A stretch of 64,000 nucleotides of DNA from contig CAJVXN010000005.1 of assembly GCA_913009335.1 (NCBI GenBank), positions 110-64,109 of the forward strand, given 5' to 3'. The stretch's first letter is position 1, and each line of letters starts with the position of its first letter. The notes under the pieces were generated by a model that was not told the DNA's origin, did not search any database, and was given only the letters and a program-made list of their open reading frames with translations. The position numbers and the translations under genes were made by a program. This DNA comes from an uncultured bacterium. GTDB lineage: Bacteria; Omnitrophota; Gorgyraeia; Ghiorseimicrobiales; Ghiorseimicrobiaceae. Shown here one piece after another: positions 17,423-47,528 of the stretch.

Positions 17423-17772
17423 TATTCCCTAAAGAATTATATCAACCGATAGCAAGATTTATTCAGCGTGTAATTGATAAACCTACCTTGTGGGATATAG
17501 ATAAATATTCTAAAGATGAAATACCGAAAGAACTTCTCCTTGATGAATATACTATTGAATTAGGGAAGTTTATTATGATGGGCGAAGAAGATTATTTTAA
17601 AGATATAATACCAGTGAGAATGTATGGAAATAAAAGAGTTAATATTAGTAAAGATGAAATAAAAAAAATTGCTTTAAAAAAATTTGAATTAATAGGAAAA
17701 GTTCAAAAAGGCGAAAAAGTTTTAATAAGCGATGATTTTCGCGGGATTGATAAAATTCTAATACAAAAATGA
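17416..17772 (+). CDS. hypothetical protein
   Basis: 118-aa ORF overlapping the stop of the upstream gene. Confidence 0.45.
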   Translation: MLIFPKELYQPIARFIQRVIDKPTLWDIDKYSKDEIPKELLLDEYTIELGKFIMMGEEDYFKDIIPVRMYGNKRVNISKDEIKKIALKKFELIGKVQKGEKVLISDDFRGIDKILIQK

Positions 17773-20779: not shown

Positions 20780-20946
20780 AGAAGTAAGAATTACTATGAA
20801 AAAACAAACTATCATTTTATTGTTAATGGATGATAATGAAGAAGTAACAGGTAGAAATGTTAAAGTAGTTGAAGATTTAGAAACGGTAGAACGAGAATTA
20901 AAATTTTTGGTAAAAGCTTGCTTACATCAAATAAAAAGGAGTAGAG

Positions 20947-21867: not shown

Positions 21868-21887
21868 CAACAACAAGGAGGAGTAAG

Positions 21888-22415: not shown

Positions 22416-22424
22416 AATAAATAT

Positions 22425-26406: not shown

Positions 26407-27045
26407 ATGATTTCTAAAGCTAAAAAATTAAAATTATGGAAAGAATTAAATAAAGATCACTGTCTTCGATATGATAAAGAATATAGAAAAACACACCATA
26501 AAAGTATTCGAGCCAATGCAGCTAGATATAGATTAAAGAATTTAGAAAAAGAAAGATTAAGAAAAAAAATATATATGCGTGATTATAGCAAAAGACAAAC
26601 AAGCATAGAAAAAGAAATCGCATGGAGATTAAATAATGTTAAAAAATTAAAAACATATAGAATAAAACATAATAAAAAGAATATAGAAAAAATTAGAAAT
26701 TATCAAAGAGCATATAGAAAAAGATATACTAAAAAGAATATAGAAAAAATTAGAAATTTTCGAAGAATATATAAATATAATTTAAAAAAAGCAGGTAAAC
26801 TAACTATTCAAACAATTCAAAAAGTCTATGAGAGTAATATTAAAAAGTATGGAACGCTTACTTGCTATCTCTGCTTAAAACCTATTAATTTTGGGCAAGA
26901 TAGCTTAGAACACAAACAACCGCTTTCTCGTAATGGTACTAATGAATGCAAGAATTTAGATATTGCTCATAGAAGTTGTAATAGTAAAAAACATTGCAAA
27001 ACATTACAAGAATGGAAGGAGGGTTTTAAAACCAATGCCGAATAG
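26407..27045 (+). CDS. HNH endonuclease (terminase-associated)
   Basis: C-terminal LEHKQPLSRNGTNECKNLDIAHRSCNSKK HNH motif; basic KKNIEKIRN repeats; directly upstream of terminase genes. Confidence 0.75.
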   Translation: MISKAKKLKLWKELNKDHCLRYDKEYRKTHHKSIRANAARYRLKNLEKERLRKKIYMRDYSKRQTSIEKEIAWRLNNVKKLKTYRIKHNKKNIEKIRNYQRAYRKRYTKKNIEKIRNFRRIYKYNLKKAGKLTIQTIQKVYESNIKKYGTLTCYLCLKPINFGQDSLEHKQPLSRNGTNECKNLDIAHRSCNSKKHCKTLQEWKEGFKTNAE

Positions 27046-32246: not shown

Positions 32247-34850
32247 ATGAAGTTTCTGCAAAACACTATCGCATCATTTTTAGAAAGCACATCTTCCGGA
32301 AATAGATGGAAGGTGATGATAATTGAAGAAGGCCTTTCTAAAAACGGTAAATTCTACACGAAAGAAGCCCTCCAGAAATCAATTCCTCTTTTTGAAAAAT
32401 CAAAAGTTTGTTTCTATGAATGGAAAGGTAAACAATTCGATCATATTCCATTATCAATAGAAAAAATGCGCCCGGAAGGATTCCCGCTGCAGACAGCAGG
32501 ATGGCTCGATAATGTTAAATTCGAAACCATTAAAGTTGAAGGCCGGGAAGTTACCGGCCTTACAGGAAGCCTGCATTTATTGGAGAATGACAAGGTTAAA
32601 CAATTAAAAGATACTCTTGTCAACGCATGGCAGAAGGGATTGAAGAATTTTCTGGGTTTATCAATAAACGCGGAAGGCCCATCGAGTGTGCGGATGTTAA
32701 ACGGCCAACCGATATCTGTAGTATCAGGTATAACGAAAGTATTTAGTACGGATTTTGTAACTCAACCCGCAGCCGGCGGGGGGTTACTTAAATTAATTGA
32801 AAGCTTAAACAACACAGGAGGGGAAGAAAAAATGTTTAAGAAGTTATTGGAAGCATTAAAGTTGTACAATCCAAAAATAATGGAAAGCATTGATGTTAAT
32901 AACATCACAGCAGAAGAAGTATTGAGCCTCTTTGAATCAGTTCTTAAAGAAGCCAAAGAAAAGAATTCTGATAAGGTAAAAGAAATCGAAGCCATAGTTG
33001 GCAAGATGAAAGATAAGAAATACGAAGAGGCAGAAACATTAATTAACTCCTTAGTTAAAACAAAAGAAGGCAAAAAAGAACTTTCAGATTCTGATTTGCT
33101 TGCGGCAAAAGAAGCTGAATTGAATCCTAAACAGCTTAAGAAAAAGAAAGAGCTTGAAAAAGCAAAAGCCGACGCTAAAGAAGCTGAAGAAACAGCTGCC
33201 AAAACAAAGAAAGAAGCCGAGGATCTTAAAAATAAAGATTTAGAAGGCAAAATGGCCGCTTTAGATAAGAAAATCAAGCAGAGAGAATGCAAGGATATGC
33301 TTGATTTAGCTCTTGATGAAAGTAAATTGCCTATGGCAATTCAAAATAAAATACGTAAGACATTCGCGAGTAAAGTCTTTGAATCAAAAGACTTAAAAGA
33401 ATCGATTGATCTTGAAAGATCAACATTGGCTAAATTAATTGAAAGTGGAAGCCATATTGATTTAGGCGGAGACGGCGGAGGCGGTGTATTTATCCAAAGA
33501 GAACCTGTTACGAGATTACAGGCGTCTCTTGATTTGACTCTTGGTTTCAAGCCGGAAGATATCGATGGGGATAATTATAAAGACATAGATGCCTTCGGTT
33601 CTTTAAGGGAAGCGTATGTCGCGTATACTGATGATCCGGGAATCAGCGGACAATTAGGGACCAAGGCAGTCGCAAGATTGCAGGAAGCCACAGAAGCAAA
33701 CTTTTCTTACGCATTAGGTTATTCGATGCAGAGAAGAATGCTTCCTGATTACAAGAAGCTTGATCCTCTATGGAAAAAAATAGCTATATCAGTTCCGATT
33801 AAGGATTTCAAATTACAGGAAAGAATCAGATGGGGCGGTTTTGGAGTATTGCCGACAGTCCAGAATGCAAGGACAGTTGCCGGAACGCCTATTGATTCTG
33901 CTACTCCTACTTATCCTGAACTTGGATTCCCGACTGACCAGGAAGCCACCTATGCGGTTGGCACCAAGGGCGGTATCGTTACCGTAACTCGTAGGATGAT
34001 AATTGATGATGATTTGAAGGTTCTTACGAAAATTCCCGGGAAGATAGGTAAAGCCGCGGCTATGACATTGAATCAGTTCGCGTTTGATTTGATGTTAAGT
34101 TATAATTCCTCTGGAATTAATGCGGCTACGATTTATGATAGTATAGCTCTTTATGCGACAGCGCATAAAAATAAAAGAACAGGCTCATTAGGATATGATA
34201 ACCTTTCTACTCTACTTGACGATATGTACAATCAGGCAGAGCTTGGATATAAAAGTGATAGCACTAATGATCCGTTAGCATCCGGAGGGACTACTCTTAA
34301 TGTTACAGCCGGAACTGGCCAGTATTTTAAAGCCGGTGATTTAATATGGCTGGCTGGTGAAATATGTAGAGTAGACAGCGTTTCAACCGACGCTTTAACA
34401 ATAGCAAGAGGAGTATTTGGAACTACCGCAGCACAGCACGCAATAGGCACTGATGTATGGAAGATTAGTCAGATTTTAGCGTTACAGAATCCTAATCTTT
34501 GGGTGCCTCGCAGCTTGCGCGGAACAGCTTTACAGCTGAAAAATTCTGAATTTAATCCTGAACAGTTGGAAAGAGCAGTCAACACAATAAGAGATTCATT
34601 TGAAGTAACGGATGCTACTCCGTATTTAAGAGGCGATGAAAATAACTATTATCTGTCAGCGCAGCCAGGCGACGTTGAAGGTATCGAAATAGGATTCCTA
34701 AACGGAAAAGAAGATCCAGAGTTATTAGTTCAGGATCAACCTACAGTCGGCAATGTGTTTGTGTATGATACGATTAGATATAAGGTGCGTCATGAGTACG
34801 GCGGTGCGGTTGTTGATTATCGCGCCTTTGCAGCTTCAATAGTAGCTTAA
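32247..34850 (+). CDS. major capsid protein with N-terminal protease-like and coiled-coil scaffold-like extension (putative fusion)
   Basis: 867 aa; central KE-rich coiled-coil (KKKELEKAKADAKEAEETAAKTKKEAEDLK); position between portal and tail genes; C-terminal about 450 aa of capsid size. Confidence 0.5.
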   Translation: MKFLQNTIASFLESTSSGNRWKVMIIEEGLSKNGKFYTKEALQKSIPLFEKSKVCFYEWKGKQFDHIPLSIEKMRPEGFPLQTAGWLDNVKFETIKVEGREVTGLTGSLHLLENDKVKQLKDTLVNAWQKGLKNFLGLSINAEGPSSVRMLNGQPISVVSGITKVFSTDFVTQPAAGGGLLKLIESLNNTGGEEKMFKKLLEALKLYNPKIMESIDVNNITAEEVLSLFESVLKEAKEKNSDKVKEIEAIVGKMKDKKYEEAETLINSLVKTKEGKKELSDSDLLAAKEAELNPKQLKKKKELEKAKADAKEAEETAAKTKKEAEDLKNKDLEGKMAALDKKIKQRECKDMLDLALDESKLPMAIQNKIRKTFASKVFESKDLKESIDLERSTLAKLIESGSHIDLGGDGGGGVFIQREPVTRLQASLDLTLGFKPEDIDGDNYKDIDAFGSLREAYVAYTDDPGISGQLGTKAVARLQEATEANFSYALGYSMQRRMLPDYKKLDPLWKKIAISVPIKDFKLQERIRWGGFGVLPTVQNARTVAGTPIDSATPTYPELGFPTDQEATYAVGTKGGIVTVTRRMIIDDDLKVLTKIPGKIGKAAAMTLNQFAFDLMLSYNSSGINAATIYDSIALYATAHKNKRTGSLGYDNLSTLLDDMYNQAELGYKSDSTNDPLASGGTTLNVTAGTGQYFKAGDLIWLAGEICRVDSVSTDALTIARGVFGTTAAQHAIGTDVWKISQILALQNPNLWVPRSLRGTALQLKNSEFNPEQLERAVNTIRDSFEVTDATPYLRGDENNYYLSAQPGDVEGIEIGFLNGKEDPELLVQDQPTVGNVFVYDTIRYKVRHEYGGAVVDYRAFAASIVA

Positions 34851-34935: not shown

Positions 34936-35286
34936 ATGGCTAAAAGATCTAGATTAAAATATGTTTTTGCAGAACAAAGAGGTACTGCTTATTCAGTATC
35001 AGCCGATACGACATTGACTACTGCTAACATAAATTCCGACGGTTATAGTTTTATTAAAATAAGCGGTGCGTTTACGCTTACTTTACCAGCGGCAGAAGAT
35101 GTATTAAAAGGTACTAGACTTATTGTCTTTGGAGATAATGCGAATTCCAAAGTAGCTGTAGTCGCGGGATTTGGCGGCGGCGGCGGAAGTTATGATACTG
35201 TAACAATAGGGGCCTATTGCGCTATACGCTTTTGGTGCGATGGATCTCAATGGTATGCTTTATCTGAAAGCGTATCCGCTTCTTAA
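34936..35286 (+). CDS. head decoration-like protein, paralog 1
   Basis: MAKRSRLKYVFAEQRG...GFGGGGGSYDTV...WCDGSQWYALSE; paralog of next gene including its leader. Confidence 0.5.
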   Translation: MAKRSRLKYVFAEQRGTAYSVSADTTLTTANINSDGYSFIKISGAFTLTLPAAEDVLKGTRLIVFGDNANSKVAVVAGFGGGGGSYDTVTIGAYCAIRFWCDGSQWYALSESVSAS

Positions 35287-35348: not shown

Positions 35349-35888
35349 ATGGCTAAAAGAATAAGATTTAAATACTTTCTCGCTCAACAGCGAGGAGGAA
35401 CTTCGTTAGATAAGTCCGCTGATTATACGCTTACCGAAAATGATATCCTGCAATTAGGATATTCTTTTATTAAATTAGATACTAATGCTAAATTAACTTT
35501 GCCAGCTGTTACATCTGCGTTAAAAGGCATTAGTATTTATGTGCATTGTACGGATAGAGGATATGTGGAATGTACTCCCGGATTTGGCGGCGGCGGCGGA
35601 AGTTATGATACTGTAAATTTATATCAGTACGATACTGTTGAATTTTGGTGCGACGGAACTTATTGGTACGCGTTATCAGAGAATGTAACTGCGGCTGGAT
35701 CTTCTTCTTCTTCAAGTTCAAGCAGTTCAAATAATTCATCAAGTTCATCAAGCCGTAGTTCAAGTTCATCAAGCCGTAGTTCTTCTAGTTCAAGCAGATC
35801 AAGCTCTTCTAGTTCAAGCAGTTCGAACTCCAGCTCTTCTAGCAGTTCAAGCAGCTTAAGCAGTTCATCTAGCTCAAGCACTAAGTAA
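35349..35888 (+). CDS. head decoration-like protein, paralog 2, with about 50-aa poly-Ser C-terminal tail ending STK
   Basis: MAKRIRFKYFLAQQRG...GFGGGGGSYDTV...WCDGTYWYALSE then SSSSSSSSSNNSSSSSSRSSSSSS...STK. Confidence 0.5.
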   Translation: MAKRIRFKYFLAQQRGGTSLDKSADYTLTENDILQLGYSFIKLDTNAKLTLPAVTSALKGISIYVHCTDRGYVECTPGFGGGGGSYDTVNLYQYDTVEFWCDGTYWYALSENVTAAGSSSSSSSSSSNNSSSSSSRSSSSSSRSSSSSSRSSSSSSSSSNSSSSSSSSSLSSSSSSSTK

Positions 35889-35898
35889 GGAGTAAAGA

Positions 35899-36213
35899 AT
35901 GGCAAATCCTACATATAGATGTCCATGGAAACAAAACGCGGGAATTGGAATAACTTGCGAGAATGTAGATTGTGGCGGATATAATTTTAGAAAAGAAGAT
36001 TGCAATTTAATTATGGCCGCCCGCAAGAGCGTAAGAATGTCCGGAGCTCCTGCAAGAGATAGTATAGTAGATGGTGTAACTGATTATTCTAGTTCATCAA
36101 GTTCATATTCATCCAGTTCAAGTTCGTCTAGTTCCATATCATCTTCGTCAAGCTCAAGTTCTAAATCAACATCTTCTTCTAGCTCGAGTTCATCCAGCTC
36201 AAGCACGAAGTAG
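35899..36213 (+). CDS. small virion-module protein with poly-Ser C-terminal tail ending STK
   Basis: 104 aa; Cys-rich N-terminus; SSSSSSYSSSSSSSSSISSSSSSSSKSTSSSSSSSSSSSTK. Confidence 0.45.
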   Translation: MANPTYRCPWKQNAGIGITCENVDCGGYNFRKEDCNLIMAARKSVRMSGAPARDSIVDGVTDYSSSSSSYSSSSSSSSSISSSSSSSSKSTSSSSSSSSSSSTK

Positions 36214-36224
36214 CGGAGGCAGCA

Positions 36225-36947
36225 ATGGAAATGACGAAAGAAGACTATTTAACTAGGATAGATACTATGTTACAGGATGAAGCAGAAAAATTACAGCCTG
36301 ATGATAAGGATAGGTTCTTATCTCAGGCTGTTTCTATGTATTCAAAAGATAGGCCCCGGGAATTGATACATGAAATAACCGGAGATGCATCGGCTTATGA
36401 TTTTAGCTTACCATCTGATTGGGTAGCTGGATTTTCAGGGCTTGTTAGCCGAGTGGAATATCCCGCTGATGATTATCAAAATCCTATATATATTGAAGAA
36501 GATGAATGGGATTTTTTTAAAAAATTAGTTAACGATGTAACTACTACTTATTTTCGATTCACTACGTTTACACCGGCGAACGGTAAAATAGCAAGGTTTT
36601 TATATACAGTTCCTCATACTTTAAATGAGAGTACAAATACCATTACAGATAATGATATAGACGCAGTTGTAAATTTAACTGCTGCTCTTTGTTTTTGGGC
36701 TCTTGCGGCAAAATTCGCGCAGACGATAGATCCTGTAATCGACGCTGATGTTATTGATTATCAGCGTAAAACTGACCTCTATACATCATTAGCCAAAGAT
36801 AAATTGGCTATATACAATTCCTTAATGGGAATAGGTGAAGAGGCAAAAGGCAGCGCGGCGGCCACCGCCGGCGTTGCGGTTAAGGATCTAGATATTGCTT
36901 TTCCCTGGGGTGAAGATTATCTTACACATCCCATGAGGCAGCGCTAA
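36225..36947 (+). CDS. hypothetical virion protein (head-tail joining region)
   Basis: 240-aa ORF by synteny. Confidence 0.45.
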   Translation: MEMTKEDYLTRIDTMLQDEAEKLQPDDKDRFLSQAVSMYSKDRPRELIHEITGDASAYDFSLPSDWVAGFSGLVSRVEYPADDYQNPIYIEEDEWDFFKKLVNDVTTTYFRFTTFTPANGKIARFLYTVPHTLNESTNTITDNDIDAVVNLTAALCFWALAAKFAQTIDPVIDADVIDYQRKTDLYTSLAKDKLAIYNSLMGIGEEAKGSAAATAGVAVKDLDIAFPWGEDYLTHPMRQR

Positions 36948-37039
36948 CCTTCCCCAAAGCAAAGATATAGAGGATAAGGCGGAGATAAGGACATACCAAA
37001 TAGTGCGATGTACAAGTCTACTCTCTCCTTATAAAAATA

Positions 37040-37498
37040 ATGTCCTTAAGCACAATTAGAGCCAAAATTAAAACTGAAATAAAAACAGTTATTACTTCCA
37101 GCGTTGGAACTGTTTATGATTATAAAAGATTTTGCAATGATTTAGTTACTTATAATACTTTATTTGTACGCGGAAAAAAAGTAAATACGTGGGAAATAGA
37201 AAGAGAATCTTTTTCACGCATAGAACATGGAGGTGCAGGTGGTGTAGAAAAAATTACTCATAATTTTATAATACGCGGTTTTTACGCGCTTGATGACTCA
37301 GTTGGCAGCGATAAAATATTTCAAGATGATTATGTAGAACCGATAGGCAGACTTTTTATGAATAACCCGACACTTGACGGCGTTTGCGATATAATAAATC
37401 TTCCTCTTACAGGGGCTATAACAATGAAGATGTTAGGCGCCGTTTTATGTCATAGTTGTGAAATCAAACTAGCAATAACAGAAAGAAGAATTTTTTAA
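37040..37498 (+). CDS. hypothetical virion protein (head-tail joining region)
   Basis: 152-aa ORF by synteny. Confidence 0.45.
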   Translation: MSLSTIRAKIKTEIKTVITSSVGTVYDYKRFCNDLVTYNTLFVRGKKVNTWEIERESFSRIEHGGAGGVEKITHNFIIRGFYALDDSVGSDKIFQDDYVEPIGRLFMNNPTLDGVCDIINLPLTGAITMKMLGAVLCHSCEIKLAITERRIF

Positions 37499-37518
37499 CT
37501 AGAAAGGAGTTTTAAATC

Positions 37519-38517
37519 ATGTCAAAAATAACACGTGTAGCTCAATTAGCAGGTAAGATAGAAAGCGTAAGTGGAACAGCTGAATCTTTAACCGCAAGCG
37601 AAGCAACGTTACTGGCCTATGAACCAGTGATGAATTTGGCTCCGGAGCAATTCAAGAGAGATCCGGTAGTCAAGCACATGTCAAGGTTTCAATCTGAACC
37701 CGGTGCAAGAAAAATGGATTTGACTTTCAAGGCAGAACTCATGGGTCCTCTATCAGGAGCAAAAGGTGTAACGCTTCCAATTACTCCATATTTAAGGGCT
37801 TGCGGCTTCTCTGAAAGTCTTTCAGGCGGCGTAAGCAATATATATGTTCCTGTTTCAAGCAGTTTCGTTACCGCGACAATAGCGAAATACCAGGATGGTG
37901 TAAGAAAATTGATGTTAGGCTGCGCTGGCAATGTAAAATTCCAGTTTAAAGTAGGGGAACCTGTGTTCTGTGATTTTACTATGCAGGGTAAATATTCATC
38001 TCATGGCGATGTATCAATGTTATCACCGAGTTATCCGGCCCAAGTACCTCTTATGTTTATGGGTGCGACAATCAGCATATTAGGTGATACATTAGTATTA
38101 GACAATCTTGAGATAGACATGCAGAATGAAATTGTTTTATCTCCATTACCGTCTGATGTAAGCGGTATTGATTATGCTAAAATAACCGGACGTAATCCGA
38201 TAATGACATTTGATCCGGAAATGACTGCTGTTTCGAGCCACGATTTTTATTCAAAATTACTTTCACGAGCAACAGCGGCAGTAACGATTACTATCGGAGA
38301 TATAAATAGCAATAAAATAATGTTTTCTCTGCCGGCTGTAAGATATACAGGATTAGGAGAAGGAGATAGAGGGGGAATAGCAATACAAAACGCGACTTGC
38401 GAAGTTTGTAAGAATTCAGATGCCGGAAACGATGAAATCAGTATAACAATGACTTCTTCGTCTAGCTCGAGTTCTTCAATGTCTAGCTCGAGTTCTTCAT
38501 CGTCTAGTTCTACGTAA
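37519..38517 (+). CDS. major tail (tube) protein with poly-Ser C-terminal tail
   Basis: 332 aa immediately upstream of chaperone pair and tape measure; ends TSSSSSSSSMSSSSSSSSSST. Confidence 0.55.
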   Translation: MSKITRVAQLAGKIESVSGTAESLTASEATLLAYEPVMNLAPEQFKRDPVVKHMSRFQSEPGARKMDLTFKAELMGPLSGAKGVTLPITPYLRACGFSESLSGGVSNIYVPVSSSFVTATIAKYQDGVRKLMLGCAGNVKFQFKVGEPVFCDFTMQGKYSSHGDVSMLSPSYPAQVPLMFMGATISILGDTLVLDNLEIDMQNEIVLSPLPSDVSGIDYAKITGRNPIMTFDPEMTAVSSHDFYSKLLSRATAAVTITIGDINSNKIMFSLPAVRYTGLGEGDRGGIAIQNATCEVCKNSDAGNDEISITMTSSSSSSSSMSSSSSSSSSST

Positions 38518-38529
38518 GGAGTTTTATTT

Positions 38530-39006
38530 ATGGGTGAGTTTAATTTTAGCATAACAATGGATTTATCCATTCCTGATTTCATGGACGCGACTATACCTTT
38601 GCAGGATATATCAAATGCAATAGCCGCTGACGCTAAAAAGAATATTCGTACGCAGAGAAGCCCTGATGGATCTCGTTTCATGCCTTTATCAAGAAGGACT
38701 ATAAACAGAAAAGGATTTAGTATGGCTCTTTTAGATAAAGGGATAATGTTTAATGCTATACGATCATACAAAGTGAGAAAGAATGTTATGGCTGTAAGCG
38801 TTATGCCAAGAGGAAAGCCGCGAAGAGATTTATTGGCATTGATACATCAGGAAATAGGTGTGCCAAGCAAAGAACACGGCAGGGTAGCCCGGCCATTTTT
38901 AGGTGTATCAAAAAAACGTGAACAATGGGCTGTGAGAAGAATGGAACGCTGGATAAATGCAAGAATACAAAAAGCAGCGCATAAGTATATAAATGTAAAG
39001 TTTTAA
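38530..39006 (+). CDS. hypothetical tail protein
   Basis: 158-aa basic ORF. Confidence 0.45.
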   Translation: MGEFNFSITMDLSIPDFMDATIPLQDISNAIAADAKKNIRTQRSPDGSRFMPLSRRTINRKGFSMALLDKGIMFNAIRSYKVRKNVMAVSVMPRGKPRRDLLALIHQEIGVPSKEHGRVARPFLGVSKKREQWAVRRMERWINARIQKAAHKYINVKF

Positions 39007-39032
39007 TAAAAAAAGAGAGGAGCTCTGTAAAA

Positions 39033-39434
39033 ATGATTGATCCGTTAAGTATCGGAGTATCAATAGAATATATCGCTGAGGAAGATAGGAAGTCAAAAAA
39101 TCCTACAGTTTGGATTATTGGATCATTGGATTCTTTTACACAATCCAAATTAATATCTACTCTTGTTGATATATCCGTAGAGGATGGAAAACCTAAATTA
39201 GAAAAGCTTGCGCAAGATAACCATCCTGATTTCGTAATTGTTAAATATGGTTTAAAAGGATTCAAGAATTTCGGGGATGTTGTATTCAAATCTGAAAAAG
39301 TAACTTTATTCGGACAGGAATTAGAAGAAGTTTCCAAAGATGTATTAAAAGTTATTCCTTTATCCGTAATACATGAATTAGCCAATGTTATATGGAGAGG
39401 AAATAAAGTAAGCGAGGAACTTGAAAAAAACTAG
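39033..39434 (+). CDS. tail assembly chaperone (G-like); -1 frameshift at A_AAA_AAC (39425-39431) would extend into 39437..39739 (GT-like product)
   Basis: slippery heptamer aaaaaac at the 3-prime end; -1 frame is continuous with the downstream ORF; classic arrangement upstream of tape measure. Confidence 0.6.
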   Translation: MIDPLSIGVSIEYIAEEDRKSKNPTVWIIGSLDSFTQSKLISTLVDISVEDGKPKLEKLAQDNHPDFVIVKYGLKGFKNFGDVVFKSEKVTLFGQELEEVSKDVLKVIPLSVIHELANVIWRGNKVSEELEKN

Positions 39435-39436
39435 AG

Positions 39437-39739
39437 TTGGCAGTTGAGGTTTCTTCTCTAGGCCTCAGTTGCCACAATTGCAATGACGCGCAAAAGAAAT
39501 TCAGGGGATGCAATGGAAATCCTGTACAACCATATTTAATAGATGGAAAACCGGCGGATAAATGTATCGCTAAATATCTGCCGGCAGAAATAAGGCACTA
39601 TATAAGATATTATGGCTATTATAAAAAAGGACATCTTCCATTAGATGTATCAAGACAACCGGCAAAAATGCTGGATATATTTGATATATTAGAAAGCGCT
39701 GAGGTTGAGAATCAAAAAAATAAATACGATAATTTATAA
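39437..39739 (+). CDS. tail assembly chaperone frameshift extension (T-like segment)
   Basis: no independent ATG (track start is TTG); in -1 frame relative to 39033..39434. Confidence 0.5.
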   Translation: MAVEVSSLGLSCHNCNDAQKKFRGCNGNPVQPYLIDGKPADKCIAKYLPAEIRHYIRYYGYYKKGHLPLDVSRQPAKMLDIFDILESAEVENQKNKYDNL

Positions 39740-39750
39740 TAGAGGATATC

Positions 39751-41712
39751 ATGGCTGTAAATAAAATAAAAATTGTTTCTGGATATGAAGATAAATCAAG
39801 CGAGAAAATAAAGGCATCGTTTGATAAGTCTAAGAAATCCGCTGTTGATTTATCAAAAGAATTTAAAAGCTTAAAAAGAAGCATTAGCACTTCTATGCTT
39901 AAAGTACGGAAGAGCATAGAAGTAAATCTACAAAAATCTTCCGTTGCGCAGAAAAAACATGCTAAAGAACTTGCTCATCATACCCGTTTCATGGGCATGT
40001 CAATAGGTAAACTAGCCGGACAAATTGGATCTATGCGTAATTTTATATTAGTATGGATGTTTGCCTTACGTCCTTTGATTAATATTATTAAAAGTACAAC
40101 GGAAGCAATGACAAAGCAAGAAGATGCTTTGAAAAGGCTTAATTACGCTATGGGTATACAGGGAACACAATCTAAAGTTGTCAATAATCGATTGATAGAA
40201 ATGTCTAAAGGATTCCAAGCAGTAACTAGATACGGCGATGAGGCTGTTTTAGAAGTAATGGAAAAATTAATAACTCTTGGAAGAGTTATGCCTAATCAAT
40301 TAGAGAGAGCCACACAGGCTGTCTTGGATTTTTCTTCCGCGAGCGGAAGAGATTTATCTATGGCTACGCTGCTTATTGCTAAAGCAGCAACGGGCTTCAC
40401 CGGGGAATTGTCTCGTTATGGAATTAAAATAGACGAAAACATACCTAAAACTAAAAAATTCTCCGCCGTACTTGAATTTATTGAAAAACAAATGGGAGGC
40501 AGGGCGCAGCAGGATATAGATAGTTATGGTGGAAAAATAAAGCTTCTAGGAAATCAATATAGTGATTTAAAAGAAAAAATAGGTTTAACAATATGGAAAT
40601 ACGGAGGATTAAACGCGGCTGTAGAAAAATTATTAAAGACATTTAGGTCATGGAATGAACATTTTGAGAAAGAAGACCCCTTAGATAATGCTATTTTTAA
40701 AGCAAAAAAACAAATTAAAGTATTGGAAGAATTAGACAAAAAAATGACTGGAAAAAGACCTATGAAATTACTTTATCTTTTTCCGATAGGAGAAATTGAT
40801 ATAGGAATTAAAAAATCAAGGACAAGGATAGAATCACTGTATAAATTTATCGACGCGGCAGAGAAAAAAAAGATAGAAAGAAAAATAGGCTCTGATGTGA
40901 TCGCTATGGCTGAGAAAGAAAAACAAATAAAAATGCAGGCCGAAGAAGATTTTCAAAAAGCGTATGATAATTTAGCTTCCAGAAAAATAGAAACAGCTAT
41001 AAAAACTTTAGAAGAGGAATACGCTTTTAATAAAAAATATGTAGATGATAAAATAGCTCTCGAGTATTTGTATTCTGAAAAGAAAAAAGCAATAGACGCG
41101 ATGGTCCTTGCTAATGAAAAAAAGAATAGAACATTAGCCGGCAGGCAAATGGTTAAATTCATGGAAACATACGCTAAGGGAATGGAGAGAGCATTAAGTG
41201 AGGGATTTTTTAAAGTTGTAAAAGGAGAATTTGAAGGATTAAAAGATGTTGTAATTAGTTTCGGCGATTTAATGTTAAAAACATTAATACAGATAGCGGT
41301 GAAGATGGCAATGATAAAAGCATGGGCCGGCTTCGGCCCTCTTTTAGGAATAAATCTTTCTACAGCTGCGACAGCTGCGACAAAAACAGTAAATGTTTTA
41401 CCCGCAACCGGACATTCAGGAGGAGTTGTTCGTAAATACCATTCCGGCGGAGAAGTAAATGCCACTCTTTTAGAAGGCGAAGGCGTTCTTAATAGAAACG
41501 CGATGTCTAATTTAGGAGTTGATAATCTTAATAAATTAAATAGCGGAGAAGATGCTGGCGGTAAAACAGTAAATAATTATTATATCCAAACAATTGATGA
41601 AAGATCATTCCGGGAAAGACTACAGCAAAATGGTGATATTTACGCTAATGCTTCCGAGCAAGGCATAAGGGACAATACTTCTTTAAGAAGGACAAGTCAA
41701 AGATTTGGATAA
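39751..41712 (+). CDS. tail tape measure protein
   Basis: 653 aa, largely alpha-helical/coiled-coil, internal hydrophobic segment, position after chaperone pair. Confidence 0.7.
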   Translation: MAVNKIKIVSGYEDKSSEKIKASFDKSKKSAVDLSKEFKSLKRSISTSMLKVRKSIEVNLQKSSVAQKKHAKELAHHTRFMGMSIGKLAGQIGSMRNFILVWMFALRPLINIIKSTTEAMTKQEDALKRLNYAMGIQGTQSKVVNNRLIEMSKGFQAVTRYGDEAVLEVMEKLITLGRVMPNQLERATQAVLDFSSASGRDLSMATLLIAKAATGFTGELSRYGIKIDENIPKTKKFSAVLEFIEKQMGGRAQQDIDSYGGKIKLLGNQYSDLKEKIGLTIWKYGGLNAAVEKLLKTFRSWNEHFEKEDPLDNAIFKAKKQIKVLEELDKKMTGKRPMKLLYLFPIGEIDIGIKKSRTRIESLYKFIDAAEKKKIERKIGSDVIAMAEKEKQIKMQAEEDFQKAYDNLASRKIETAIKTLEEEYAFNKKYVDDKIALEYLYSEKKKAIDAMVLANEKKNRTLAGRQMVKFMETYAKGMERALSEGFFKVVKGEFEGLKDVVISFGDLMLKTLIQIAVKMAMIKAWAGFGPLLGINLSTAATAATKTVNVLPATGHSGGVVRKYHSGGEVNATLLEGEGVLNRNAMSNLGVDNLNKLNSGEDAGGKTVNNYYIQTIDERSFRERLQQNGDIYANASEQGIRDNTSLRRTSQRFG

Positions 41713-41730
41713 TATAAGGAAAAAATAACA

Positions 41731-42423
41731 ATGTCATATAATCATATACTCACTCTCACTCCGGAATTCGGCATCGAAGAATCAATAGAATTCCGTACTA
41801 ATGTTACTGATTCAGAAAGCGGGAAAGAACACCGTGATGCATTGTGGGATGAAGGAATACGGGAATATAAATTAACTGTAAGATTCCTTACTAAAACCGC
41901 GATGGATTTAATATGGAATTTTTTTATCGCCAGGCATGGAAGTTTTGATTATTTTCTTACAAAGATAGAACAGGAATACGAACAGATTAATGAAGCGGTA
42001 GATACCGGCGACGGAGTAGTAACTGAATTTTTATTAGATAAATTTCCCGTAGATACAGCATCAAATCACTCGTGTAGTGTAGCCGATGTTACGAATACAG
42101 ATTATCTTTTACGTAATGATTTTAATCTTGAGAAATCTTATATTACTTTTAATAATGCTTACTCCGGAGCGATAGTAGTTTCTTATGAATATTATTTTAA
42201 AGTCCGCTTTAAAGAAGATAAATTAACCAGGCAATTAGCTGCTTATAAATTACTGCATGCTGGGATAACTTTGAAAGAGGTACGTTGGACATCTTATGGT
42301 TCAACATTAGGTAATTCTTCTTCTTCTTCAATGAGTTCTAGTTCTAGTTCCAGTTCATCTAGCTCATTAAGCTCAAGTTCTTCCAGTAGTTCTTTAAGCA
42401 GTTCAAGCAGTTCATCAGCTTAA
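41731..42423 (+). CDS. minor tail protein (lambda gpM position) with poly-Ser C-terminal tail
   Basis: synteny TMP-M-L-K-J; ends NSSSSSMSSSSSSSSSSSLSSSSSSSSLSSSSSSSA. Confidence 0.45.
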   Translation: MSYNHILTLTPEFGIEESIEFRTNVTDSESGKEHRDALWDEGIREYKLTVRFLTKTAMDLIWNFFIARHGSFDYFLTKIEQEYEQINEAVDTGDGVVTEFLLDKFPVDTASNHSCSVADVTNTDYLLRNDFNLEKSYITFNNAYSGAIVVSYEYYFKVRFKEDKLTRQLAAYKLLHAGITLKEVRWTSYGSTLGNSSSSSMSSSSSSSSSSSLSSSSSSSSLSSSSSSSA

Positions 42424-42424
42424 T

Positions 42425-43285
42425 ATGTATATTCTATCTACAATATTAAACGCGATTAAAGACAGGGTGCAAAATAAACCGGTAGAGATTACCGATATTT
42501 ATTTAGGCAGCCAGACAACCGAAGATTCTGATACCCTCCATTTTGTAAATTTCTATAAAACCTTAACTTTTTTCACCTATATAGGACAAACATCACAAGC
42601 ATATACTCCTTTAGCAATTCGTCGTTCCGCGGTAAAGAAAACAGCTAAAGGCGAGATTGAAAGAATTTCTTATCGTGTCGATAATGTCAATAAAGGAATG
42701 TCGGCTTACGCGGCAAGCAAAGATTTTCGTAATAAACGTATTGTAACAAGATTGATATTCCGGGATTATCTAAACTCTTCCTCCGATGCCAAAATCATCT
42801 TTGATGGTTTTATCCAGTCAATTCTTTTTGAGCAAAAATCAATGTCTGTTACATGCGCTCCTAAAATAGGTTCATTATCTTTTGAAACAGGATGGCCCTA
42901 TCAAATACAATGTCATGCGCGTTTTGGGGATAGTTACTGTCAAATAAATAAGGAATTATCAGAAAATAAAGTAACTGGAACTGTTACCGGAGGAACTTCT
43001 TCCACTGTAATTGATACAGCAAATTTGAATCAAGCGGATAATTATTGGAATTGGGGAACGATTGCATTTACTTCCGGAGACAATAATGGATCATCGCGTA
43101 AAATAGTTGATTTCGATAAGGCAGCAAATACGCTTACTCTGGATTACGTCTTAGACAATATAGTTTCCTCCGGAGATACATACATGCTTTATCGCGGTTG
43201 TGATAAAGCGTTAGAAACTTGTGAAAGTACATATAATAATACGATTAATTATCATGGTTTCCACACTATACCATTGCGAAAATGA
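42425..43285 (+). CDS. minor tail protein (lambda gpL-like) with C-terminal 4-Cys cluster
   Basis: QCHARFGDSYC ... YRGCDKALETC; synteny before NlpC/P60 gene. Confidence 0.45.
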   Translation: MYILSTILNAIKDRVQNKPVEITDIYLGSQTTEDSDTLHFVNFYKTLTFFTYIGQTSQAYTPLAIRRSAVKKTAKGEIERISYRVDNVNKGMSAYAASKDFRNKRIVTRLIFRDYLNSSSDAKIIFDGFIQSILFEQKSMSVTCAPKIGSLSFETGWPYQIQCHARFGDSYCQINKELSENKVTGTVTGGTSSTVIDTANLNQADNYWNWGTIAFTSGDNNGSSRKIVDFDKAANTLTLDYVLDNIVSSGDTYMLYRGCDKALETCESTYNNTINYHGFHTIPLRK

Positions 43286-43683
43286 TAACAAATTATGATC
43301 TTAATGACTTGATTGGAGTTCCTTTCAAGCTTAATCGCAGAGATTTTAAAGGATGTGATTGCCGGGGCATAGTATGGCTTTATTATAAGCATGTTATGAA
43401 TAAAGAAATACCTTTCACTGATGGAAAAAGAATATTTTTCCGCAATAAGAATAAAGATTTTGAACGTATAACCAATGTACTTAAAACATTTACCAGAGAT
43501 GTAAGTTTCAAAGAATTAGAAGAAGGAGACATCGTAGTGCTTAAAGGATTAAGTTCTTTCGGGGCCTTAGGAGTTTGTATTAATAAAGAATATATTTTAC
43601 ACATGGATAAGTTTGTAGGATCGTGCTTAACTAAAACACGATATATGGAAAATTTAATATTATCAGTTTATAGGCCGATATGA
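43282..43683 (+). CDS. NlpC/P60-family tail protein (lambda gpK-like)
   Basis: catalytic Cys region FKGCDCRGIVWLYY and His region YILHMDKF. Confidence 0.65.
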   Translation: MITNYDLNDLIGVPFKLNRRDFKGCDCRGIVWLYYKHVMNKEIPFTDGKRIFFRNKNKDFERITNVLKTFTRDVSFKELEEGDIVVLKGLSSFGALGVCINKEYILHMDKFVGSCLTKTRYMENLILSVYRPI

Positions 43684-46600
43684 AAAAAATAAGCATACTC
43701 TTTTTCTTTTTATCATTAATTATAACAAAAAATGCCTATGCTGTGCCTGTGGCAGTATCAGTAGCTTTTTGGTACGCGGCCCAAGCAGTTGCAGCCTTTG
43801 TTGTTGCTAATTGGGTAGTAATCGCGATAACAGTCGCGTCTATAGCGTATAGTCTTTCTCAATCTACAAATCAAGATAGGCTGAAAGCTCCCGCCTCAAA
43901 ATATACTTCTCCGGTGATATCCAATTCTTATTCTAATGAAGGTATTGTTCCATTGTTATATGGAGGCCCTATTGCTTTAGGCGGAAATATTATATGGCAG
44001 TCTGATCCGGGATCAACAGTGCAGCGATTTTTAGCCATCTCCGCGGGAGAAATATCAGCGATCACTAATGTCTTAATTGATGATCAGGATATATCGTCGC
44101 TTTCCGGTTGCAGCTATACAGCGTATTTAGGAACGGCAACGCAATCAGTAGACTCCAGGGGGGCGGGAACAGTTAAAGGATTACGCGATGTTGCTTATTT
44201 GGCCCTTGAGATTACATCAGGAGATAAGGTAAGCAGCAATCCTATTGTTTCATGCCGGGCAACCGGGAGAAAAATACAGACCTGGAATTCATCTACATGT
44301 AACTGGACTACTAACTCCCTATCCAGTTCTAAAAATCCTGCCGCGATATTGCGTGATTATTTATTATTGAGTTACGTTGTCGGTGGTTGTGGTATTCCGG
44401 CGGCGTATGTAGATGATGTAAGTTTTGGCGCGGTATCTGAAATCTGCGACGCTCAAATAGATAATGGATCAGGCGGAACAGAAGCAAGATATGAATTGGA
44501 TATTGTTATCGATACGAAACATTCCGCTTTAGATAATATTGATAAGATGCTTATTACTTGCAATGCCGCATTGATACGCAGCGGAGCAACGTATAAATTA
44601 ACCATAGAAAAAGCCAATGAAACAGCTGTTATGGCTTTTACAGAAGATAATATTTTAAAAGGATCATTTGAATACGGATACGGAAAAGCTGATGAAACTC
44701 CGAATAAAGTAGGAGTTGAGTGGATATCCGCGTTAGAAACTAAAAATCCTAAACGTGTAGAATGGGCGGAAGATGAATTAGATCAGGAAATACGCGGTAT
44801 AAGAGAAGAAAAAATAGAAACATATGGAATTATCCGGCAAAGCCAAGCTTCCAGGATCGCTAAGAAAGCATTGTATGAAAGAAAGATAAACGATATTTGG
44901 TGTAGATTTAAAAGCAATATTAAGGCCCTGCATTGTGAACAGATGGATGTCGTTACTATAACACATTCACGGCCGAATTGGACTGCCGCGCAATTCAGGA
45001 TAGTTGAAATAAATGAAGCTGATTTTGGCAACGCTCAATATTTAGCGCAGGCATATAACAGTTCTGTCCTTGATGATAAATATGGAGCAACATTTGATGA
45101 TTGGGATTATGGATCTCCTCCTAATCCGTATACTCCGGTAACAGACGTTACAGGAGTAGTATTAGAAGAAGTCGGCTGGCGTAATACAGATGGTGTACAT
45201 ATTGCTCATATCGATGTTACATGGACGGCTCCCGCGACGAAAAAAGAATTTCTTTCCAGCTATGTTATAGAGCTTAAAAAAGAGAATGACGCTTATATAT
45301 CTGTGGGGACTCCTTCATCCGGAGATACTGAATATCGTATAAATCTTAATCTTGAAATAAATAAAAATTATTATGTTCGTATAAAAACTGTATCAACAGA
45401 AGACATTGTTTCTGATGGAACAGTTTCTTCAAAAATTACGTTAGTCGGTAAAGACGCGAATCCTTCGGATGTTTCTTCATTCTTAGTTAGAAAATACAGA
45501 GATACAGTAATATGCAGATGGACAAAAGTTACCGATGTCGATGTTGAAAAATATGAAATAAGGAAAGGAGATGATTGGGATTCCGCCGGCATTGTCGGTA
45601 CTAATCTTACCGGAATAGAAACAACATTAAGAGATGTAAAAATAGCAGCAAATCAATCCTATTGGATAAAAGCGATTGATAATTCAGGCAATTATTCTGA
45701 AAATGCCGTTGAAGCGATATTAACAATATCAAATATTCCTTTTCAAAATATAATACAAACTTATTTAGAGCATACCAACTGGCTTGATAACTCAAACATA
45801 TACTATGTTTCAAATGAGGATAGCGACTATGATTTAAGAACTGTAACGCAGGATTATGAAAAATTAGCACAGTCGTTTACTCCCAGCGTGGACAGGACTG
45901 TGGATAAAATATCTTTAAAATTAGTTGAAAACGGCCATATTTATTCTTCTTCTTCAAGTTCATCTTCCAGCAGTTCAAGCGTTTCCTCAAGTTCTTCTAG
46001 TTTAAGTTCCAGTTCAAGCAGCCTTTCTTCAAGCAGTTCTTCATCAAGCATAGCAAGTTCAAGCAGCTCAAGCTCAAGTTCGTCAAGTTCAAGCTCCTCA
46101 AGCAGCTTAAGTTCATCAAGTTCGTCTTTGTCTTCTTCAAGCAGTTCGAATAATTCATCCAGCTCCTCAAGCAGCTTAAGTTCATCAAGTTCGTCTTTGT
46201 CTTCTTCAAGCAGTTCGAATAATTCATCCAGTTCATCGAGCAGTTTAAGCTCTTCAAGCAGTTCGAGTAAGATGCCTCCGATAAGCAGCAGTTCGAGTTC
46301 TTCTTATTCTTCTTCATCTTCTTCAAGATCTTCATCCTCGAGTTCTCGAAGCTCTAGCTCTTCTTCAAGATCTTCTTCTTCAAGTTCTGTTTCTTCCAGT
46401 TCTTCTTCATCGAGTTCTTCCAGCAGCCTAAGTTCTTCTTCATCGAGTTCTTCCAGTTCTTCTCTATCTTCTTCATCTTCTAGTTTAAGTACAAGTTCAT
46501 CAAGCAGTTCTTCATTGAGTAACTCAAGCAGCTCAAGTTCTAGTTCTTTAGCCGGAACAACAGCGATATGGGTTACGATAGAAGGAGATAATGCCGGCGA

Positions 46601-47528
46601 ACCTGACGGTTCCGCTGTTGCAACAAGTAATTATATTGACGCAAGCACTATCGGCACTACTTTTAGATGGATAGATTTTACGCTGCTTGCTAACGCTAGC
46701 TTATCAGCAAGCGTTAAATACTGGATAGTTTTACATGGAGGCTATACTAAAAGCGATACTACTTTTATCTCATGGAAAGCTGATATTACCAGCGCTTCTT
46801 TTTCCGGAGGCAACTTGGCGTATTACGACGCGGGAGCAGCGGCCTGGACAGCCCAGGCAACGGAAGATTTTATGTTCAAAGTGCTTGAATATGTTTCAGG
46901 GGATAATTATTATATATCAGGAAGTAATTTAAAATTTGAAAGCGGAGAATTATCAGCTGTTTATTACACAAGCAAAAAAGATATCGGTTATGTTTGTGAT
47001 GCAAGAATAATGATTCAATATATCGCTTCTATCGCGCAAACTATGGCCTGGGATTCAGACGCGGCAAGAAAATTTAATGACAGTGAAACATTGCGTTTTA
47101 CCGGTGCCGAATTCGCGGGGAATGTATCTTTTGAGATACGTACATCAGAGGATAATATTACATGGACTGCGTGGGAAGATTGGATTTCAGCGGATTACAC
47201 ATGCCGATATTTTCAAATAAGAATGACATTTACCAGAGATTCCGCGGCTACAGAAATATTAATGTCTGACCTAACTATCGATGTTGATTTACCGGATGTC
47301 GATGAAACGCAGGATTATACTATCAGCGTGGCCGCTGATGGAGCGGCCATAACATTTGTTAAAACATACCATGTAGCGCCTTCTGTTAACGTTGATATAC
47401 TTTCCGGATCAGGGATAGTACATACTTTTTCAGTGGTTCCTTCGATTACCGGAGTAACGATAAAACACCTTGCGCTTGATAGCTCAGAACAAACAGGAAC
47501 AGGAAAAGTACATGTCCACGGGATTTAA
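43680..47528 (+). CDS. tail tip / host-specificity protein (lambda gpJ-like) with central about 200-aa poly-Ser region
   Basis: 1282 aa; hydrophobic N-terminus; FN3-like segments; Ser-rich tract 45948-46550. Confidence 0.6.
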   Translation: MKKISILFFFLSLIITKNAYAVPVAVSVAFWYAAQAVAAFVVANWVVIAITVASIAYSLSQSTNQDRLKAPASKYTSPVISNSYSNEGIVPLLYGGPIALGGNIIWQSDPGSTVQRFLAISAGEISAITNVLIDDQDISSLSGCSYTAYLGTATQSVDSRGAGTVKGLRDVAYLALEITSGDKVSSNPIVSCRATGRKIQTWNSSTCNWTTNSLSSSKNPAAILRDYLLLSYVVGGCGIPAAYVDDVSFGAVSEICDAQIDNGSGGTEARYELDIVIDTKHSALDNIDKMLITCNAALIRSGATYKLTIEKANETAVMAFTEDNILKGSFEYGYGKADETPNKVGVEWISALETKNPKRVEWAEDELDQEIRGIREEKIETYGIIRQSQASRIAKKALYERKINDIWCRFKSNIKALHCEQMDVVTITHSRPNWTAAQFRIVEINEADFGNAQYLAQAYNSSVLDDKYGATFDDWDYGSPPNPYTPVTDVTGVVLEEVGWRNTDGVHIAHIDVTWTAPATKKEFLSSYVIELKKENDAYISVGTPSSGDTEYRINLNLEINKNYYVRIKTVSTEDIVSDGTVSSKITLVGKDANPSDVSSFLVRKYRDTVICRWTKVTDVDVEKYEIRKGDDWDSAGIVGTNLTGIETTLRDVKIAANQSYWIKAIDNSGNYSENAVEAILTISNIPFQNIIQTYLEHTNWLDNSNIYYVSNEDSDYDLRTVTQDYEKLAQSFTPSVDRTVDKISLKLVENGHIYSSSSSSSSSSSSVSSSSSSLSSSSSSLSSSSSSSSIASSSSSSSSSSSSSSSSSLSSSSSSLSSSSSSNNSSSSSSSLSSSSSSLSSSSSSNNSSSSSSSLSSSSSSSKMPPISSSSSSSYSSSSSSRSSSSSSRSSSSSSRSSSSSSVSSSSSSSSSSSSLSSSSSSSSSSSLSSSSSSLSTSSSSSSSLSNSSSSSSSSLAGTTAIWVTIEGDNAGEPDGSAVATSNYIDASTIGTTFRWIDFTLLANASLSASVKYWIVLHGGYTKSDTTFISWKADITSASFSGGNLAYYDAGAAAWTAQATEDFMFKVLEYVSGDNYYISGSNLKFESGELSAVYYTSKKDIGYVCDARIMIQYIASIAQTMAWDSDAARKFNDSETLRFTGAEFAGNVSFEIRTSEDNITWTAWEDWISADYTCRYFQIRMTFTRDSAATEILMSDLTIDVDLPDVDETQDYTISVAADGAAITFVKTYHVAPSVNVDILSGSGIVHTFSVVPSITGVTIKHLALDSSEQTGTGKVHVHGI

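Follow-up and report, generated by a model that had tools for sequence, protein, structure and literature searches.

The window analysed here, a stretch of 64,000 nucleotides (contig CAJVXN010000005.1, positions 110–64,109), covers most of the genome (~64–67 kb) of an uncultured tailed phage. Its late genes form one long + strand block (~12–52 kb), in which six proteins carry tracts of 20–400 residues consisting of ~80% serine, and in which a cassette of putative glycosylation genes lies directly upstream of the carrier with the longest tract. The poly-serine (poly-Ser) tracts, the enzymes encoded beside them and the probable relation between the two are the subject of this analysis.

Poly-serine tracts of the late proteins

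The carriers and the extent of their tracts are listed in Table 1. Four of them end in the tract: a dec2-like protein encoded just after the capsid gene, a small protein that contains Cys, the major tail tube protein (Phage_tube_2; PF18906 is found in its homologues) and a DUF2460 protein, which we take to act in the distal tail by comparison with the gene transfer agent of Rhodobacter capsulatus (RcGTA). The tail tip protein, which is gpJ/RcGTA g15-like, has an internal poly-Ser linker that precedes its C-terminal distal domain. The sixth carrier, hereafter the giant protein, is 912 aa long and contains two tracts. The major capsid protein itself has no tail, and a paralog of the dec2-like protein (dec1-type, 34936–35286, +) has no tract and serves as an internal negative control. 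A six-frame scan of the window detects no comparable Ser tract beyond these six carriers.

Five of these tracts had been claimed by an original prediction made from the sequence alone. All five lie where it placed them and contain 75–83% Ser; the sixth carrier, the giant protein, had been missed and was found by the six-frame scan. The 'gpM-position' protein of this prediction is actually the DUF2460 protein of an RcGTA-like tail module, and its 'decoration protein' was labelled by position: neither Pfam nor PHROGs assigns a family to the dec2-like or the small protein, for both of which a role in the capsid is a guess based on gene position.

Serine accounts for only 6.8% of the 12,231 residues outside the tracts, which excludes chance as their source: at this frequency, ~0.01 windows of 10 residues with at least seven Ser would be expected (binomial), versus hundreds observed. 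The tracts draw on all six Ser codons, in a mixture close to that found outside (tract/outside: AGC.21/.16, AGT.26/.20, TCA.21/.24, TCT.22/.23). Runs of a single codon do not exceed four, and neighbouring codons of the largest tract are identical less often than expected (13 observed vs 68 expected). The exact DNA words shared by tracts of different genes are no longer than in codon-shuffled nulls, on which ground gene conversion between the tracts of the window is rejected. The mixed codons, together with the lack of shared DNA, indicate that each tract has been kept Ser-rich independently and at the protein level, as the original prediction had argued from the codons.

The non-Ser residues within the runs are characteristic of each genome, across all of its tail-bearing proteins: C/R in L001, F in L031 and L034, L/I/G in L007 (L numbers designate loci of other phages). 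They point to concerted evolution, within-genome amplification of units or a shared mutational bias, though the tracts of the window share no DNA. Long antisense open reading frames (ORFs) with translations of the LELLELEE type (25087–25656, 35660–35905 and 45997–46335, all on the − strand) are mechanical by-products of the Ser tracts and are easily mis-annotated.

An S-T-K ending, announced for three tails, is present on two of them, those of the dec2-like and small proteins; the tube ends in S-S-T and the DUF2460 protein in S-S-A. Endings vary in relatives (ESA, QSA, SG, TSS, ST). The last codons of three tails (ACT AAG TAA, ACG AAG TAG and ACG TAA) lead directly into a GGAG (35880–35900, 36205–36226 and 38509–38531, respectively) that lies 8–10 nt ahead of the ATG of the next gene. 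S-T-K is rejected as a protein motif, as it is not conserved in relatives and as the T-K-stop codons overlap the downstream Shine-Dalgarno sequence; this overlap with the ribosome-binding site of the following gene probably explains the ending more simply.

Table 1. Poly-Ser carriers and genes of the upstream cassette in the window (all on the + strand)
Position	Product	Tract position (nt)	Tract length	Ser in tract	Assignment
35349–35888	dec2-like protein	35691–35888 (tail)	66 aa	80%	
35899–36213	small protein	36082–36213 (tail)	44 aa	80%	
37519–38517	major tail tube protein	38446–38517 (tail)	24 aa	75%	Phage_tube_2
41731–42423	DUF2460 protein	42310–42423 (tail)	38 aa	82%	Pfam PF09343, E 5.8e-21
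43680–47528	Phage-tail_3 tail tip protein	45936–46556 (internal)	207 aa	83%	Pfam PF13550, E 2.7e-12
23657–26395	giant protein	24323–24442 and 25124–26308	~435 residues in total, ~395 aa in the latter		
13524–14624	DegT/DnrJ/EryC1-type sugar aminotransferase, first cassette gene				Pfam PF01041, E 9.9e-73
14618–17422	934-aa fusion: GT9-fold domain, central methyltransferase-like domain, C-terminal GT4 (GT-B) domain				
17769–18362	class I S-adenosylmethionine (SAM) methyltransferase (Methyltransf_24)				Pfam, E 3e-14
18362–19057	rhamnosyl O-methyltransferase/CmcI family				Pfam PF04989, E 1.8e-56
19005–19733	class I SAM methyltransferase (Methyltransf_24)				Pfam, E 7.4e-11
19730–20779	paralog of 20947–21867				GT-A fold inferred from paralogy
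20947–21867	GT-A-fold glycosyltransferase, family without Pfam model				AlphaFold2 and Foldseek
22425–23657	Methyltransf_23 (aa 24–169), last cassette gene				Pfam, E 3.4e-14

Conservation of the tails among relatives

Relatives were collected by querying IMG/VR with the globular portion of the tube protein, which yielded 42 loci (64–81% identity). Over these 40+ relatives, the positions of the tails are constant and their lengths vary widely, within ranges that are specific to each protein. Tails are present in 21/21 distinct homologues of the tube protein (narrow range, 20–46 aa), 19/19 of the small protein (25–116 aa), 19/20 of the dec2-like protein (16–298 aa) and 13/14 of the DUF2460 protein (11–141 aa). 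When duplicates are included, 41/42 tube, 35/35 small and 25/26 DUF2460 proteins are tailed, the exceptions being truncated ORFs. Among the relatives, the dec2-type paralog is tailed and the dec1-type paralog never is; none of the eight distinct best-matching sequences listed for the latter has a Ser tail. The linker of the tip protein is found only in relatives that share its distal module (L001, L008 and L003), and tip proteins with another C-terminal module have no linker.

In a wider search with the tube protein, every homologue with at least 60% identity has a poly-Ser tail. In a sister clade (51–54% identity), poly-Thr/Ser tails (TSTSTTTTSTSTTSTT...) take the place of poly-Ser, and Thr/Ser tracts of up to 415 aa are also found on the dec-like and giant proteins, at the same positions. 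This replacement suggests that the hydroxyl chemistry is what is conserved, so that the conserved feature appears to be a run of hydroxyl residues rather than Ser as such. Tube homologues with at most 37% identity, from contigs binned in metagenome-assembled genomes (MAGs) of Ca. Jettenia, Desulfuromonadales, Geobacter and Planctomycetia, have no tail and end at a conserved GDDE..xF strand, precisely where the tail begins in the others. Conserved positions, protein-specific lengths, genome-like codon usage and the lack of shared DNA thus support a selection of the tracts at the protein level.

Giant poly-serine proteins

The giant proteins of the various phages have a common architecture, with a variable N-terminal globular head, a Ser stalk of ~100 to >900 residues and, at the C-terminus, a short aromatic/acidic motif in two or three copies. 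The head of the window protein consists of 2 × 5 blade-like repeats of ~44 aa and weakly matches designed beta-propellers (Cake8, E 0.002); its C-terminal motif is ...YFSDETYNYEMSEDTSNYEF. The globular heads of the giant proteins of other phages vary, and some looked lectin-like or beta-helix-like by eye. The C-terminal motif is [KD][DN]T[YS][ND]Y[KE]F in the window clade and the sister clade (including L055, L056 and L131–L139) and W[ST]DR.E in the phages L043–L053. It may be a virion anchor, and the giant proteins are candidate mucin-like fibres that would be attached through their C-terminus.

A poly-Ser protein is encoded directly upstream of a homologue of the 26963 gene, TerS and TerL in every relative whose TerL is at least 56% identical and whose upstream sequence is available; at most, 917 of its 973 residues belong to the Ser tract. 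At the equivalent position (4858–9445), the more distant L094 (TerL 39% identity) encodes fibre-like proteins that have no poly-Ser stalk, yet carry the same kind of C-terminal motif; their stalk is made of dozens of repeats of the 'SDSISIAEN' type. Contigs of jumbo-phage size (L109, 188 kb; L126, 215 kb), and also L105, encode the same glycosyltransferase (GT) family as the window together with proteins containing 1,000–1,400 poly-Ser residues, the extreme case being 1,399 tract residues in a fragment of 1,599 aa.

The upstream cassette

Judging from the predicted families and folds of its products, the block 13524–23657 (Table 1) is a real glycosylation cassette. With the GT9-fold and GT4 domains of the 934-aa enzyme and the two GT-A paralogs, it holds at least four GT domains in addition to sugar-tailoring enzymes; its methyltransferases number four to five. 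Homologues of its DegT aminotransferase adjoin the fusion GT in L043–L053 and in L130, where the homologous cluster also includes genes of a sugar epimerase/dehydratase and a UDP-glucose dehydrogenase. The C-terminal half of the last product (22425–23657) has no database match.

The GT9-fold domain of the 934-aa enzyme (~aa 70–365) was recognized in an AlphaFold2 model of residues 1–420 (pLDDT 81). In a Foldseek search of PDB, this domain matches the GT9 structure 3tov (E 3e-11), as well as WaaC and WaaF; the protein O-heptosyltransferase TibC (4rap/4rb4, E 2e-10) gives the best TM-score (0.52) and rmsd (4.9) among the PDB matches. A profile of ten homologues of the enzyme matches the GT4 structure 2jjm by its C-terminus (E 2e-6), and database homologues carry PF01075 (GT9) and PF00534. 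Five Cys are invariant in the family (C318, C323, C326, C331 and C342), between the last strand and the final helix.

The model of the 20947–21867 protein (pLDDT 91, pTM 0.89) retrieves PDB structures with E ≤ 1e-3 of which the best 50 of 200 all have a GT-A/nucleotide-diphospho-sugar transferase fold, nearly all of them being glycosyltransferases. None of its 312 metagenomic homologues is annotated, all being described as hypothetical. The neighbouring 19730–20779 product aligns with this family at 24–27% identity and has in common with it the invariant D75 and N139-G-D141; the profile of the 20947/19730 family finds no match in PDB.

Association of sugar-transferase genes with poly-serine proteins

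The 934-aa enzyme or the 20947 protein has homologues at 38 viral loci (GC 28–59%, contigs of 5–273 kb), which were searched, within 10 kb, for ORFs containing a poly-Ser tract of at least 20 aa. The controls were 63 loci centred on an unrelated TerL, a by-product of a metagenome scan, of equal total length (648 kb vs 630 kb). Such an ORF is present at 27/38 GT loci versus 2/63 control loci (Fisher P = 1.4e-13). At the GT loci it is often directly adjacent to the GT gene and has tracts of up to 1,399 residues; in the two positive controls, the ORFs are both short and on the minus strand. At most of the 38 GT loci, the tail genes are not detectably related to those of the window.

In the window clade, every locus whose sequence extends far enough upstream has a modification cassette just before the giant poly-Ser gene, which is itself followed by the 26963 homologue, TerS and TerL. 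The type of cassette found at this one locus differs between relatives, and the tails are retained in close relatives. The GT9-GT4 type is found in the window and its closest relative (L001/L102). Most other relatives have an L056-type cassette. Besides several methyltransferases, it encodes a GT8/Nucleotid_trans-like family, of which 7/9 members match Nucleotid_trans and 3/9 match GT8, and another family whose N-terminus shows a weak GT9 motif. Compared with PDB, the profile of the L056_4747 family gives no useful match and that of the L056_5956 family only the weak GT9 N-terminal motif. The sister clade with Thr/Ser tracts has a third type, with a GT2 (E 1e-13, above the Pfam threshold), a GT4-like protein and a radical SAM protein; wider sampling found no further member of this GT2 cassette beyond the clade itself. 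L094 has neither poly-Ser nor a recognizable GT in the 10 kb searched, where one ORF of 281 aa is without assignment.

Proposed glycosylation of the virion and its alternatives

From what is directly observed, namely the tracts and their conservation, the folds and families of the enzymes and their genomic association, we infer a modification of the Ser residues: the poly-Ser tracts probably accept O-linked glycans attached by enzymes that the phage itself encodes, yielding a virion with a mucin-like coat and mucin-like fibres. The modification would proceed as follows. Cassette and structural genes would be expressed jointly from the + strand block late in infection, and nucleotide sugars supplied by the host would be tailored by the DegT aminotransferase and the O-methyltransferases. 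The first sugar would be added to Ser hydroxyls in the cytoplasm, most plausibly by the TibC-like GT9 domain of the 934-aa enzyme, and the glycan would be extended by the GT4 domain and the two GT-A enzymes. The disordered Ser tails of the tube, DUF2460, dec2-like and small proteins, the linker of the tip protein and the ~400-Ser stalk of the giant protein would become mucin-like bottle-brushes that cover the tube and distal tail, and probably the capsid as well, and that hold a lectin-like head away from the virion. Shielding, colloidal stability or reversible adhesion to glycans of hosts or particles may be the purpose.

The original prediction had guessed at such a set of O-glycosylation substrates and had placed a glycosylation cluster upstream. 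This cluster exists, with its DegT and CmcI-family enzymes, GT9-fold/GT4 fusion and two GT-A-fold paralogs, and the co-occurrence of tails and GT cluster in related phages, which had been proposed as a check, is found. The guess gains support from both, as well as from the swapped GT cassettes and the selection at the protein level; glycosylation itself and exposure of the tails at the surface are thereby made plausible.

Several points weigh against this interpretation. The system is described from the genes of an uncultured phage, for which neither host nor isolate is available. A poly-Ser ORF is missing from the 10 kb around 11/38 GT loci, the Fisher P of the association ignores shared ancestry, and the absence of GTs from tail-less relatives refers to L094 only, which is partly covered. 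The GT9 and GT4 sequence scores of the window 934-aa protein taken alone fall below threshold, and a phmmer search of PDB with its GT9 domain found nothing; the likeness to TibC is at the level of fold only. Finally, tracts of the same composition exist in bacteria. The polyserine linkers (80–83% Ser, ~40 aa) of carbohydrate-active enzymes (CAZymes) secreted by Saccharophagus degradans, Teredinibacter turnerae and Cellvibrio japonicus (PMC2699552; Howard et al. 2004) are given a function described as unknown in PMC2699552, which mentions neither glycosylation nor a link to GT genes.

Like these linkers, the tracts of the phage could be unmodified, flexible and hydrophilic spacers or entropic bristles, the GT cassette acting elsewhere, on the host envelope or on other sites of the virion. 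Besides the similar composition and length and the GT loci devoid of a nearby poly-Ser ORF, such a role would suit the tip (45936–46556) and giant proteins, where a tract of ~80% Ser clearly joins folded domains, and the equivalent fibre of L094, whose structured repeat stalk shows that spacing alone could explain the tract at this place. However, the C-terminal tails of four proteins connect nothing, and most tracts are such tails, which is not the case of the CAZyme linkers. Their carriers are the tube, DUF2460, Phage-tail_3 and unassigned late proteins instead of secreted CAZymes with carbohydrate-binding modules, and the tracts exceed 900 residues in relatives and lie beside GT cassettes. 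A spacer role leaves unexplained this tight association (P = 1e-13) and the presence of three different GT cassettes at one locus beside tract genes, and it does not account for a clade-wide change to Thr/Ser that preserves the hydroxyls. It is considered unlikely, without being negligible, and is the main alternative.

Two other explanations are less likely. The tracts might bear another modification of their hydroxyls, either phosphorylation, which would make a polyanionic coat binding cations or minerals, or acylation. The conservation of hydroxyls fits any O-linked chemistry, and the contigs derive from sediment and marine metagenomes; but the conserved neighbours are genes of sugar enzymes, and 58 ORFs of the window (or parts of them) compared with Pfam, a few also with NCBIfam and PHROGs, match no family of protein kinases or acyltransferases, which makes this explanation very improbable. 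Neutral low-complexity expansion by replication slippage, tolerated at permissive termini and linkers, would agree with the wide variation of tract length between relatives, the genome-specific interrupting residues, the tandem-repeat structure of the largest tract and the fact that 75% of the non-Ser tract residues are one step from Ser codons, but it is hardly tenable for tracts that are invariably in the Ser frame and at the same positions, that mix two unconnected Ser codon families with at most four identical codons consecutively, that are never lost from a complete homologue nor gained by the tail-less paralog and that, on the tube, are confined to a narrow range of lengths.

O-glycosylation of the tracts by phage enzymes could also be viewed in a wider frame, which is proposed more tentatively. 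It may be that uncultured phages, the only ones in which such a system has been seen so far, widely glycosylate their virions by means of homopolymeric Ser or Thr/Ser modules (~15 to >1,000 residues) placed on many virion proteins and on fibres with a head-stalk-anchor architecture, with a TibC-like GT9-GT4 enzyme and a newly recognized GT-A family hyperglycosylating these modules in the cytoplasm. With a cassette that is swapped between close relatives and an acceptor that remains constant, this would be a phage counterpart of the diversification of O-antigen serotypes, built on a mucin-like scaffold.

Relation to known glycosylation systems

To our knowledge, only a few mycobacteriophages in culture are documented to glycosylate their virions; the modified proteins are reportedly capsid and tail tube subunits and the modification is said to be cytoplasmic. 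The glycans of Che8, Corndog and Myrna have been proposed to act as a shield against antibodies (Freeman et al. 2023, as cited in PMC12363180 and PMC12582341). Like these phages, that of the window encodes its own GTs (GT9 fold, GT4 and GT-A fold). However, tblastn searches with the 934-aa enzyme (14618–17419) and the GT-A-fold protein (20947–21864) give no match at E ≤ 1e-3 in 50,697 GenBank phage records, including those of Che8 (gp110), Corndog (gp38) and Myrna. The proposed acceptor also differs: it is a homopolymeric stretch of Ser, up to hundreds of residues long, on at least six proteins. No description of poly-Ser or serine-rich tracts in phage structural proteins was found in the literature.

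TibC and Aah are bacterial autotransporter heptosyltransferases (BAHT) that hyperglycosylate Ser residues of the autotransporters TibA and AIDA-I; TibC modifies many Ser in the cytoplasm and has a four-Cys iron finger (Cys 339, 342, 358 and 370) (PMC4358343). The 934-aa enzyme resembles TibC by its GT-B, GT9-like catalytic fold. Its five invariant Cys are located late in the C-lobe, where TibC has its iron finger, a lead drawn from comparing positions. Unlike TibC, the window enzyme is fused to methyltransferase-like and GT4 domains and has no match to it at the sequence level; its residues 1–70, which would correspond to the N-terminal beta-barrel region, are modelled at low confidence (pLDDT 40–60) with no barrel. 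The presumed substrate is disordered poly-Ser instead of a beta-helix, and the window encodes no autotransporter.

The serine-rich-repeat adhesins of Gram-positive bacteria (Fap1, GspB, SraP) contain very long stretches rich in Ser, to which the dedicated GT-B enzymes GtfA/GtfB attach O-glycans in the cytoplasm, and they form extended fibrils with a terminal binding domain; they rely on repeats of the dipeptide type, an accessory Sec system and an LPXTG anchor. In contrast, the tracts of the phage are nearly homopolymeric, and neither accessory Sec genes nor an LPXTG anchor was found in the window ORFs and Pfam scans. Giant viruses of the Mimivirus type decorate their surface fibrils by means of a virus-encoded sugar aminotransferase and glycosyltransferases, which is only an analogy, as these are eukaryotic viruses with unrelated proteins and no poly-Ser acceptor. 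Overall, as far as sequences and predicted folds tell, the system is functionally similar to mycobacteriophage glycosylation and to the TibC/AIDA-type and adhesin systems, and appears to be a member of none of them by homology.

Other features of the phage genome

The window has a GC content of ~36%. Its + strand block encodes head and packaging proteins (TerS, TerL, an SPP1-type portal and an 867-aa protease/scaffold-capsid fusion) and tail proteins (the Phage_tube_2 tail tube, a tape measure and an RcGTA-like distal tail module). In the capsid fusion (32247–34850), the Phage_capsid_4 domain covers aa 483–862 only; the part before it is protease/scaffold-like and includes a Lys/Glu-rich coiled segment. 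The gene order of the distal module, DUF2460, Gp84_N/BR0599 hub, NlpC/P60 and Phage-tail_3, matches that of RcGTA/phiJL001-like siphoviruses and is identical in L097, a relative without tails. Genes for replication and DNA modification (SNF2 helicase, AEP primase, DNA methylase, RNA ligase) occupy the − strand arms on either side of the block. No integrase family match was found among the window ORFs scanned against Pfam, a scan that did not extend to the shorter ORFs of both arms.

No cultured relative was found, the best matches of TerL and the capsid protein among GenBank phages being 25–31% identical; for the capsid fusion, the closest isolate is Microcystis phage Mae-JY22 (31%). A protein 100% identical to 20947–21867 has been deposited in a MAG labelled Candidatus Omnitrophica (GCA_011051015.1, contig DRER01000121.1). 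This bin label is the sole hint to a host. One scan of genome contigs retrieved only the distant, tail-less tube homologues of Deltaproteobacteria, Geobacter and Planctomycetia MAGs and identified no host. The MAG contig (27.8 kb) terminates within the giant poly-Ser gene, which suggests that the tract breaks assemblies. A marine metagenome (PRJDB5792) contains near-identical fragments of the window sequence.

Two arrays of an 11-nt unit with a DnaA-box-like TTATCCACA lie in opposite orientation at 10386–10416 and 10716–10760 (TGTGGATAAGC × 2.8 and GTTATCCACAG × 4.1). They sit between divergent genes, where the coding strand and the GC skew both switch, and are therefore a candidate replication origin. 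A tRNA-Asp gene (12031–12120) overlaps the start of an ORF with a DnaJ domain (12090–12440), which is followed by a Cpn10/GroES homologue (12639–12944); the phage thus appears to encode co-chaperones at the start of its late block. An HNH endonuclease gene with internal AT-rich tandem repeats (26407–27045; repeats 26641–26773) is placed between the giant poly-Ser gene and the 26963-TerS-TerL unit; among the TerL-centred relatives, only L058 has a homologue upstream of TerL. In the N6/N4 DNA methylase (54231–55703, −), the N-terminal half weakly matches LAGLIDADG and may contain a remnant of a homing endonuclease or of an intein.

Implications

The recurrent pairing of GT and poly-Ser genes in dozens of environmental phages suggests a sugar-coated virion of a kind not yet described. 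In practice, the Ser tracts seem to break assemblies, and they generate long spurious antisense ORFs. If the model is true, virion glycosylation would be common in environmental phages, from those with contigs of ~40 kb to those of jumbo-phage size (270 kb), and would involve enzyme families that have escaped annotation, as exemplified by the >300 hypothetical homologues of the 20947 protein. Poly-Ser would be a simple and portable acceptor tag that can be attached to any protein, and would provide a sequence signature for predicting glycosylated virions in metagenomes. The enzymes would be candidates for the glyco-engineering of phage particles and recombinant proteins. Lastly, the system would give an idea of how sediment phages tune their surface chemistry, adhesion and antigenic diversity.

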